DNA from: a virus
Lineage: Duplodnaviria; Heunggongvirae; Uroviricota; Caudoviricetes
Virus record (IMG/VR): IMGVR_UViG_2740892230_000015
Reading direction: 5' to 3' (one strand)
Length of the DNA: 35,688 bases
Below the pieces are notes generated by a model, which saw nothing but the letters and a program-made list of their open reading frames with translations, was not told where the DNA came from and ran no database searches. Numbering within the stretch: position 1 is the first letter of the stretch; every line of letters starts with the position of its first letter. Below, in pieces: positions 19,357-20,057 of this stretch. A program made the translations under genes and the position numbers.

Positions 19357-19430
19357 GGTAAGGGTACTTCGTAGGGATTCGAACCCTCTGCCAAGCTCGG
19401 CGATCTCCGACGTCGCAAAATACCCTTACC
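19357..19430 (-). other. tRNA-like remnant (T-arm-like core inside a 10-bp inverted repeat)
   Basis: GGTAAGGGTA ... TACCCTTACC flank a 54-nt core containing GGGTTCGAATCCC. No valid D or anticodon arm could be drawn. Confidence 0.3.
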
Positions 19431-19438
19431 TGTTGTGC

Positions 19439-19514
19439 TGGTGCCGATTAACGGACTCGAACCGCTGACATCCTGCTTACAAGGCAGGCGCTCTACCAAC
19501 TGAGCTAAACCGGC
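19439..19514 (-). tRNA. tRNA-Thr (anticodon UGU)
   Basis: Manual cloverleaf: acceptor GCCGGTT/AATCGGC, anticodon loop CTTGTAA, T-loop TTCGAGT, CCA encoded. Confidence 0.85.
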
Positions 19515-19516
19515 AT

Positions 19517-19592
19517 TGGCGATGGTGGATGGATTTGAACCATCGACCCGTTGATTAACAGTCAACCGCTCTAACCGCTGAGCTACACCATC
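19517..19592 (-). tRNA. tRNA-Asn (anticodon GUU)
   Basis: Manual cloverleaf: acceptor GATGGTG/CACCATC, anticodon loop CTGTTAA, T-arm GATGG-TTCAAAT-CCATC, CCA encoded. 2 nt upstream of tRNA-Thr. Confidence 0.85.
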
Positions 19593-20057
19593 ACTTGCCG
19601 GGTACGTCTCCGGCGAGGGCTTCCACCTCCGTATGCTTTTCGGCGCACCGCGCCCTGGCTGCAATTCGGTAACAGGGGATGCATAACCCTGGCTTCCAGC
19701 GTGATTAGCGCTTTCAGCATGACGGGATATACCCGTAAATTCGTGGAACTGTACCCAAAGTGCTGTTAAGCACCGCTGTTACGCTGAAAAGAAGACGCAA
19801 CAGGAAAGGACGCTGACCAACAGATGGCCCCTTCTCGTTCATCTGGTTAATCACACCAGCGCCCTTACCTGTTGTGCCTCCCCGTTCCCTAATACACAGA
19901 CGGGGACACTCTGCGGTCGATTTTTTGACGGGGGACGACTCATACCCCGTGGCGTCTGGCTTCTTAGGCCGCTACCATCATCAGATCATCGTTTGCATTT
20001 ACTTTAATGGTCAGTTTCTAAACCGCCGCAAAGTCGCTAACCATGACGAAAACCCTG

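Follow-up and report, generated by a model that had tools for sequence, protein, structure and literature searches.

A candidate family of long RNA hairpins separating tRNA genes in the ban operon leader of P1-type phage-plasmids

The viral record IMGVR_UViG_2740892230_000015 of IMG/VR comprises 35,688 nucleotides (hereafter, the window) of a P1-type phage-plasmid, and contains adjacent genes for tRNA-Asn and tRNA-Thr next to which a 16-nt direct repeat had been described. The 1.5 kb around the repeat and the tRNA genes present 98% identity to Escherichia phage P1, and the best plasmid match to positions 18840-19900 is a 96-kb E. coli P1-type plasmid with 100% identity. Transfer of the P1 annotation places this region in the minus-strand leader of the C1-repressed ban operon, where Pban/Op72, a dicF-like region, trnA (Asn), trnT (Thr), tciA, tciB, tciC, trnI and ban are annotated in this order on the same strand. 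Structure prediction added to this list a series of long stem-loops, so named HA to HD here, yielding the minus-strand order Pban, dicF-like region, HA, a 114-nt structure, tRNA-Asn, tRNA-Thr, HB, HC, HD, tciABC, trnI and ban. We propose a model in which long RNA hairpins of one family separate the tRNA genes, and in which two of these hairpins have the 16-base repeat in common as their lower stem. The elements of the array are the following.

19862-19877, minus strand: copy 2 of the direct repeat, an exact match reading GCACAACAGGUAAGGG; 5' stem strand of HA, pairing with 19798-19812 in the fold.
19788-19883, minus strand: hairpin HA (core stem-loop 19798-19874); RNAfold -52.6 kcal/mol, z = -4.6.
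19669-19782, minus strand: 114-nt structure closed by GUAACAG...CUGUUAC, with an AAC/GUU-type base; conserved in P1, P7, Ro157c2YLVW and JL22.
19597-19614, minus strand: small leader hairpin GCCGGAGACGUACCCGGC, 4 nt upstream of tRNA-Asn; paralogues at 19214-19231 and 19031-19049.
19517-19592, minus strand: tRNA-Asn (GUU), called by ARAGORN; 74.5 bits with the Rfam tRNA model.
19439-19514, minus strand: tRNA-Thr (UGU) with encoded CCA, called by ARAGORN; 72.9 bits with the Rfam tRNA model.
19423-19438, minus strand: copy 1 of the direct repeat; 5' stem strand of HB.
19351-19437, minus strand: hairpin HB, with a stem of about 21 bp and one bulged A; its tip carries a small hairpin and a T-arm-like hairpin.
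19115-19214, minus strand: hairpin HC (CACUACAACGUUGAGAACACUGG...CCAGUGUUCUCAACAUUGUGGUG); -49.6 kcal/mol, z = -6.3.
18857-18935, minus strand: hairpin HD (CGUAACAGGUAAGAGCAUUC...GAAUGCUCUUUCCGUUGCG), z = -4.2; the last hairpin before tciA.

The five long stem-loops at 18857-19883 (HA, the 114-nt structure, HB, HC and HD) are paralogous. Repeat finding and alignment revealed that HC and HD share arm and tail motifs with HA and HB, and the common plan encompasses a stem base of the form (CAC)AAC...GUU(GUG), often with a bulged purine after AAC, and a 3' tail reading RUGAAKGC. A hairpin scan of both strands of the whole 35.7-kb window located family hairpins only at 18857-19874 on the minus strand, its remaining matches being the plus-strand images of two family hairpins and one likely chance match at 24022. 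Runs of stacked base pairs were predicted to reach 21 in HB, 22 in HC, 19 in HD and 16 in the core of HA (about 24 with its outer extension). Some members carry a single bulged A and others have no bulge; there is no internal spacer loop, and none of the family hairpins is followed by a U-tract. HB folds with -47.5 kcal/mol when its flanks are included (z = -4.6), and with -40.3 kcal/mol for 19351-19437. The leader hairpins share the motif GYCGGA...CCGRC, and the array can be read as three cassette-like units: leader, Asn, Thr and HB; leader, nothing and HC; and leader, about 110 nt of non-tRNA sequence and HD. The HC unit looks like an "empty cassette", because its leader hairpin precedes HC with no tRNA between them.

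No Rfam family matches these hairpins. The only match to the Rfam model of YrlA (RF02553), at 25.6 bits against a gathering score of 69, covers the two real tRNAs, not HB. The hairpins are not described in the GenBank annotation of P1, P7, D6 or SSU5 or in the searchable literature, and a prior mention in the P1 genome paper is possible. A scan of genome contigs for CAACGTTGAG and CTCAACGTTG separated by 50 to 80 nt returned unrelated palindromes only, mostly from Nostoc. The Nostoc palindrome, CAACGTTGAG...CTCAACGTTG, recurs at a spacing of about 70-92 nt in many Nostoc genomes (loci L106-L159) and represents a repeat family unrelated to the P1 hairpins. A miniature inverted-repeat transposable element with terminal inverted repeats was also considered and rejected: outside the stem base the copies differ from one another, and the whole set is confined to about 1 kb.

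The 16-mer CCCTTACCTGTTGTGC occurs exactly twice in the window, at 19423-19438 and 19862-19877, with no further copy even when up to two mismatches are allowed; its expected count is 0.01, and none of 100 shuffles yielded two matches. Both copies read GCACAACAGGUAAGGG on the minus strand, where each provides the 5' strand of a long stem-loop. An earlier note on this DNA had reported the repeat and its position relative to the tRNA genes, and both hold under ARAGORN and Rfam: copy 1 starts at the first base past the CCA of tRNA-Thr, and copy 2 precedes the 5' end of tRNA-Asn by 270 nt. The two copies are thus present on either side of the tRNA pair as the note had proposed, but they are the 5' strands of two of five paralogous stem-loops rather than flanking duplications. 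Among the 61 distinct relatives carrying HB, the exact 16-mer is found twice in only 31. A target-site or att-type duplication around the tRNA pair was rejected, the deletion and duplication junctions that it predicts having no exact match in viral contigs, compared with 92 loci that carry HB.

HB contains the 74-nt element (19357-19430) to which the note had drawn attention, and an identical element is present in 92 viral contigs. Its perfect 10-bp arms, GGTAAGGGTA at 19357-19366 and TACCCTTACC at 19421-19430, are as reported, but they form part of a longer stem (19351-19437), about 21 bp with a single bulged A, which includes the repeat. The element does not lie just beyond the first repeat copy, as had been stated: its right arm overlaps copy 1 by 8 nt.

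Conservation of the predicted structure was assessed on 29 distinct family members, over the 14 stem pairs inward from AAC/GUU. The first three of these pairs (AAC/GUU) are invariant or nearly so across the 29 stems, changes on both sides are observed in 12 of the 14 pairs, and 96.3% of the alignment cells are standard pairs, a percentage inflated by taking each stem from the predicted fold of its own sequence and removing bulges. The covariation score was 0.77, against 0.22 in shuffles (none of 500 reaching 0.77) and at most 0.22 with slid partners, numbers that overstate independence in that the aligned sequences are related paralogues and orthologues. Compensatory changes, such as a C-G to U-A replacement at the base, also maintain pairing among the orthologues of HA. 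The upper stems vary in sequence and stay paired; what unites the family is a conserved base beneath covarying stems. In addition, in 21 of 30 distinct hairpins the RNA-sense strand is the more stable of the two, with a mean difference of 4.1 kcal/mol, an effect expected of G-U pairs.

Alignment with the tRNA regions of related phages, suggested in the earlier note, recovered the same hairpin architecture in P7, D6, SJ46, JL22 and Ro157c2YLVW. It is also present in SSU5 and in SSU5-type plasmid prophages of about 110 kb from E. coli, E. albertii, Salmonella and Klebsiella, in which the flanking genes (integrase, GrxA, Gp49 and ligase) are unrelated to the ban operon. In every tRNA-bearing case of P1, D6 or SSU5 type, a family hairpin lies about 1-2 nt past the CCA of the last tRNA in the group, with one overlap. 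The gap is 1 nt after tRNA-Thr (Thr-CCA-(G/A)-CACAAC...) and after the tRNA-Ser of P7 (Ser-CCA-G-CGCAAC...), and 2 nt after the tRNA-Ser of SSU5-type plasmids (Ser-CCA-GA-CACAGC...); in one Klebsiella plasmid the CCA of tRNA-Asn overlaps the hairpin start. Different tRNA sets surround the same hairpins (Asn-Thr, Asn-Tyr-Thr, Arg-Thr-Ser and Arg-Tyr-Thr, with Ser present or absent and at variable distance), and this variation extends across 66 full-length segments of related viral contigs from IMG/VR. For Thr and Ser, the tail RUGAAKGC could pair with the 3' end of the preceding tRNA; since the tail is maintained irrespective of the upstream sequence, this pairing was excluded as a source of covariation.

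Two further observations concern the tRNA genes themselves. The tRNA-Arg(UCU) of some relatives, exemplified by E. coli plasmid NZ_AP022217 (locus L013, 1369-1445; compared with locus L009, 1893-1967), has the acceptor stem and T-arm of the phage tRNA-Asn and differs from it only in the D-loop and the anticodon arm. Judging from these sequences, it looks like the product of an anticodon-arm replacement that switched tRNA identity. At 17932-18007 on the minus strand, ARAGORN reports a tRNA-Met(CAU) where the P1 annotation gives an ileX-like tRNA-Ile2, two assignments separated only by lysidine modification.

The P1 GenBank annotation lists two plus-strand open reading frames (ORFs) of unknown function across this region, upl (window positions 18899-19090) and plp (19091-19468), which raises the alternative that protein coding, by upl and by plp as a lipoprotein, underlies the repeats. 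The plp frame covers the whole 74-nt element. It has a TTG start, however, and overlaps tRNA-Thr by 30 nt, and its Cys-rich translation is of low plausibility and has no Pfam match. Nor are the frames maintained in relatives: JL22 carries an interrupted plp, SJ46 has lost upl together with the start of plp, P7 and D6 have other sequence in place of these same parts, and in Ro157c2YLVW the stretch downstream of tRNA-Thr has been replaced. Plus-strand coding is therefore scarcely credible as the origin of the repeats, and upl and plp, antisense to the structured RNA array, are probably not genes. A minus-strand ORF of 43-44 codons at 19219-19353, whose start (GUG)AUG lies in the 3' tail of HB, is probably non-coding as well. 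This candidate (43 aa) was judged unconserved because its start codon is lost in SSU5-type relatives, which have AGG.

The tip of HB contains the tRNA-like sequence that the earlier note had recognized in the 74-nt element.

19373-19387, minus strand: T-arm-like AGGGUUCGAAUCCCU in the tip of HB, holding an exact GGGTTCGAATCCC at 19374-19386.

The tip is laid out as UAUUUUG-CGACG-UCGGAGAUCGCCGA-GCUUGGCAG-AGGGUUCGAAUCCCU-A-CGAAGUA, and its exact GGGTTCGAATCCC matches the T-arm pattern GGUUCGAAUCC. Weaker look-alikes, insignificant alone, occur in HC (GGGGUCAUAUCCC) and HD (GGGUUCAUAUCCC). The note had interpreted the element as a possible decayed tRNA gene, in which case the HB tip would be a tRNA pseudogene deprived of its anticodon region, with the 16-nt repeat as an incidental feature. 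Such an origin accounts for a perfect T-arm beside two real tRNAs, one that matches the T-arms of real phage tRNAs at 20 of 21 positions and is flanked by a 7-bp acceptor-like helix (UAUUUUG/CGAAGUA), at a locus where relatives gain and lose tRNAs. The resemblance, however, ends there. As the note had itself stated, the element does not fold as a complete tRNA: ARAGORN reported nothing at default settings or with -ps, the -ps80 call is a chimeric "tRNA-Tyr" overlapping tRNA-Thr, and the Rfam tRNA model (RF00005) does not match 19351-19437 at expectation values (E) up to 10. No CCA is encoded, the "acceptor" runs on into a helix of about 21 bp, instead of 7 bp, which is common to hairpins devoid of a tRNA-like tip, and the 28 nt between "acceptor" and T-arm hold one small hairpin. 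Nothing aligns beyond the T-arm with ten tRNAs from the window and five related loci (P7, Ro157c2YLVW, L009, L010 and L013), or in phage genomes generally; outside P1-type genomes only a stretch of about 21 nt matches, and it corresponds to the T-arms of real tRNA genes, such as the tRNA-Asn of FelixO1.

Comparison with relatives points in the same direction. Between the same arms, unrelated tips occupy this position in hairpin HE of P7 and Ro157c2YLVW, in two other types in SSU5-type plasmids and in one from a Klebsiella plasmid, and no relative carries a full tRNA there. The tRNA-like patch is hence optional. On this sequence comparison, what had been read as a tRNA remnant is the tip of one hairpin and not a dead tRNA gene: only the T-arm, some 15-21 nt, resembles a tRNA, within a variable tip that is replaced in relatives. 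The tRNA pseudogene was rejected on the results of ARAGORN, Rfam and the alignment to related tRNAs, and we consider it quite improbable.

A comparable arrangement was identified in N4-type phages. One of them carries homologous tRNA-Asn and tRNA-Thr genes, about 86% identical, with a long hairpin 1 nt past the CCA of tRNA-Thr and another 3-4 nt past the CCA of tRNA-Pro. These hairpins look similar to the P1 family, with no demonstrable homology. N4-type phages also have a conserved structured RNA. In six Schitoviridae, 35 pairs are predicted for it and 10 of these show compensatory changes; it resembles HB in its long stem (about 25 bp in the N4-type RNA), its side hairpin, a T-arm-like hairpin adjoining the 3' strand and its site in a tRNA cluster. 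It differs from HB in that the tips share no sequence similarity and that the N4-type covariance model matches HB weakly. The top matches of this model (R1) in the window were HA (24.5 bits), HC (22.8), HB (15.7, E of about 0.1) and HD (12.8); the alignments shown for HA and HC involve the stem only, and both of these hairpins match on both strands. This amounts to a resemblance rather than to demonstrated membership. Sequence homology of the N4-type hairpins with HC or HB was rejected, since pairwise alignment was unconvincing and the covariance model matches through stems only.

The N4-type structured RNA (1382-1493 of locus L160, phage vB_EcoP_3HA13; also loci L162-L166, alignment A4) is unannotated and sited in the tRNA cluster. 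No Rfam family matches it in the four loci scanned (L160, L162, L164 and L165), and it appears to precede a terminator-like hairpin with a U-tract in Pylas and SP-076. The same locus L160 contains, at about 1327-1395, a 69-nt tRNA-like sequence with acceptor stem, T-arm and CCA and a shortened core, which ARAGORN does not call. The matching region lies under a tRNA-Cys annotation in PBM-2 and UE-M3, and AL25 has a "tRNA-Undet" somewhere in this stretch.

The recurrence of the long stem, side hairpin and T-arm layout in a covarying RNA conserved across N4-type phages speaks for the alternative that HB is the gene for a small tRNA-like RNA. In this scenario, the T-arm would direct RNase P to the long stem, from which RNase P and 3' nucleases would release a product of about 57 nt, which might act as a mimic or decoy, for instance for tRNA-binding or tRNA-cleaving proteins, a role compatible with the processing function favoured below. 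A precedent exists in the same phage, as the C4 RNA of P1 is an RNase P product. The N4-type model, however, scores HB at the low level given above and through the stem alone, the tip is dispensable in P7, Ro157c2YLVW and SSU5-type relatives, and HB has neither a CCA nor a D-loop GG for pairing with the T-loop. We regard a dedicated small RNA gene as doubtful, to much the same degree as the pseudogene.

Differences among relatives were informative as to how the array changes. In JL22 and RCS47, HB is followed by a 174-nt spacer and by the second hairpin HE, which has the same lower stem and a different tip. In the window and in P1, HB is joined to the sequence lying downstream of HE, with the junction inside the shared 23-nt 3' arm and tail, and in P7 and Ro157c2YLVW only HE is present, directly after Thr. 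Given a JL22-like order and crossing-over between like arms, both the HB-only and the HE-only arrangements would therefore follow. A second repeat pair marks a deletion.

18887-18911 (tip of HD) and 19166-19190 (tip of HC), no strand assigned: 25-nt direct repeat, 96% identical, at the deletion boundaries of SJ46.

Salmonella phage SJ46 lacks 18912-19165, exactly the DNA between the two copies. In P7 and D6, 18873-19098 is replaced by a tRNA-Ser cassette, with breakpoints at the 3' arm of HD and at the conserved leader. Wherever cassettes (Asn, Thr, Tyr, Ser and Arg) have been inserted, deleted or swapped among these relatives, the breakpoints fall in repeated sequences, mainly in the hairpin arms. 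Some breakpoints lie outside hairpins (19099) or inside tRNAs, and the pattern is thus that of ordinary homologous recombination among dispersed repeats, with no fixed crossover site. The earlier note had offered a processing or recombination signature of the tRNA cassette as a possibility; the hairpins do bound tRNA cassettes and indels in relatives break mostly in their arms, but neither of the junctions, deletion or duplication, that recombination between the HA and HB 16-mers would leave was found in viral contigs. Separately, two P1-type contigs from IMG/VR (L038 and L051) present deletions that arose by recombination between similar parts of tRNA-Asn and tRNA-Thr and that leave a chimeric or broken tRNA, as exemplified by a 13-nt repeat at window positions 19456-19468 and 19569-19581.

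These units invite comparison with integrons, and the hairpins could by analogy be DNA-level sites that fold in single-stranded DNA like attC, leader-tRNA-hairpin units being exchanged among P1-, D6- and SSU5-type phage-plasmids by a structure-specific, site-specific recombinase. Like attC sites, they are imperfect hairpins located downstream of the cassette gene, in which only AAC...GTT at the stem base is invariant, the stem and tip vary and many members have an extrahelical base; "empty" cassettes exist, and the same cassettes are found in the unrelated P1-type and SSU5-type backbones. They depart from attC in that GCACAAC and GTTGTGA miss the core consensus RYYYAAC/GTTRRRY at one and two positions, respectively, and that no unpaired central spacer is present. 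No integron integrase was found: the integrase at SSU5-type arrays is a generic tyrosine recombinase (Pfam Phage_integrase only, with no NCBIfam integron-integrase match), and no recombinase is annotated in about 6.5 kb of the P1 reference around the array. Furthermore, breakpoints are not confined to GTT, the strand bias favours RNA, and viral contigs yielded no junction of the kind that excision between the two 16-mers would leave. A cassette system of this kind is very unlikely.

The same recombination data also bear on the simpler alternative that the hairpins are functionless debris, leftovers of cassette-unit duplication maintained without selection, with recombination as their only consequence. 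The paralogues are clearly related by duplication, having common arms, tails and leader hairpins, and the breakpoints, including 19099 and those inside tRNAs, look like ordinary homologous recombination. Against debris, the upper stems are almost wholly diverged and still paired over at least 14 bp in 29 variants, the position adjacent to CCA is kept in unrelated phage backbones, and there is a G-U bias toward the transcribed strand. We consider debris unlikely.

Our preferred interpretation, held at somewhat better than even confidence, is that the hairpins act in RNA processing or stability and are at the same time substrates for recombination. Under this interpretation, they would punctuate the polycistronic tRNA-mRNA transcript of the ban operon, with duplexes of 16-24 stacked pairs (about 20 bp in most) acting as the entry for a double-strand-specific nuclease, most likely RNase III. 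The predicted stems attain the duplex of about two helical turns (at least 20 bp) associated with RNase III substrates, and the assignment to RNase III specifically is tentative. Alternatively or additionally, the hairpins may protect RNA ends. In E. coli, 5'-terminal stem-loops protect against 5'-end-dependent decay by RNase E, and a hairpin located 1-2 nt past CCA would form the very 5' end of the downstream RNA after tRNA removal; at such a new 5' end it could block 5'-end-dependent RNase E, and a 3' hairpin could block exonucleases. Either nuclease entry or end protection would release the tRNAs and stabilise the downstream tciABC-trnI-ban message. As a side effect of their repetition, homologous recombination between hairpins would reshuffle the tRNA cassettes.

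The placement of the array relative to the ban promoter has to be weighed in this context, and it involves two upstream features.

20244-20283, no strand assigned: palindromic C1 operator (Op72/Oban) and Pban promoter region, containing inverted repeat I2, from the P1 annotation; drives the minus-strand transcript.
20058-20087, minus strand: terminator-like site closing the dicF-like region of the annotation and preceding the hairpin/tRNA array; GCCCAUCUUCGGGUGGGC followed by U7.

Several points weigh against the processing interpretation. Pban is separated from the array by the terminator-like site at 20058-20087, such that entry of transcription would need read-through or an unmapped promoter. 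The function of the hairpins, and RNase III as the nuclease, are inferred from predicted folds and sequence. The covariation figures carry the two limits given with them, and the strand bias is modest, the complement folding as well or better in 9 of the 30 hairpins. Finally, the invariant AAC...GUU base could equally be a recognition site at the DNA level or for a protein. On the surrounding sequence itself, the terminator-like site is a strong one and closes the "dicF-like region", a short way past Pban; that annotated region (about 20050-20151) has no match to the Rfam DicF model even at E up to 10, and no promoter-like sites were found in 17800-20400.

About 1 kb of the ban operon leader in the well-studied phage P1 has been annotated only with two doubtful plus-strand ORFs. 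The present analysis suggests that it encodes a family of conserved, covarying RNA stem-loops bounding tRNA cassettes. If so, the P1, D6 and SSU5 annotations (upl and plp) would need correction, a structured-RNA family would be missing from Rfam, and a concrete route would be available by which phage-plasmids change their set of tRNAs (Asn, Thr, Tyr, Ser and Arg). Such changes bear on current ideas that phage tRNAs counter tRNA-cleaving host defences, and the hairpins also bear on how tRNAs embedded in an mRNA operon may be released without destroying the downstream message.

Several known systems share features with these hairpins. The stems processed by RNase III in rRNA operons, as well as the early-mRNA sites of phage T7 and the lambda sib site, are imperfect duplexes of at least 20 bp that separate segments of polycistronic transcripts. 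The P1 hairpins are likewise predicted to be imperfect duplexes inside a polycistronic transcript holding stable RNAs. They differ in that the rRNA-operon stem encloses its product, whereas the P1 hairpin follows it, and in that their AAC/GUU base has no counterpart among known RNase III determinants. A second class comprises E. coli 3'ETS-leuZ, the tRNA-miRNA TMERs of MHV68 and the species 1 and 2 RNAs of T4, in which a structured RNA is released by tRNA-processing enzymes. As in the P1 leader, the tRNA and the structured RNA immediately after it belong to one precursor; the analysis gave no sign of a released stable RNA or of a base-pairing target for the P1 hairpins. The 178-bp repeats of E. 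coli tyrT carry the 3' end of tRNA-Tyr, the acceptor/CCA end being duplicated in tandem units. They resemble HB in placing a tRNA-derived fragment just downstream of a tRNA gene, and HB departs from them in having only a T-arm-like patch, in a single occurrence and inside a hairpin.

In the promoter-early stem-loops (PeSLs) of T4-type phages, which flank ORFs, a sigma-70 promoter is joined to a terminator stem-loop (PMC2839356, PMC4122927). Like the P1 hairpins, they are short conserved stem-loops that recur between variable genes, and recombination between copies explains insertions, deletions and replacements that distinguish close relatives (PMC2839356, PMC4122927). Repeats at indel boundaries are also a feature of the P1-type arrays, in which the breakpoints of JL22, Ro157c2YLVW, P7 and SJ46 fall in repeated arms or tip sequence. 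Unlike PeSLs, the P1 hairpins have no promoter-like site (17800-20400), their stems are much longer, they lack U-tracts and they flank tRNA genes. In concept, the hairpins of the ban leader come nearest to the PeSL cassettes (PMC2839356, PMC4122927) and to the processing signals recognised by RNase III or found in spacers.

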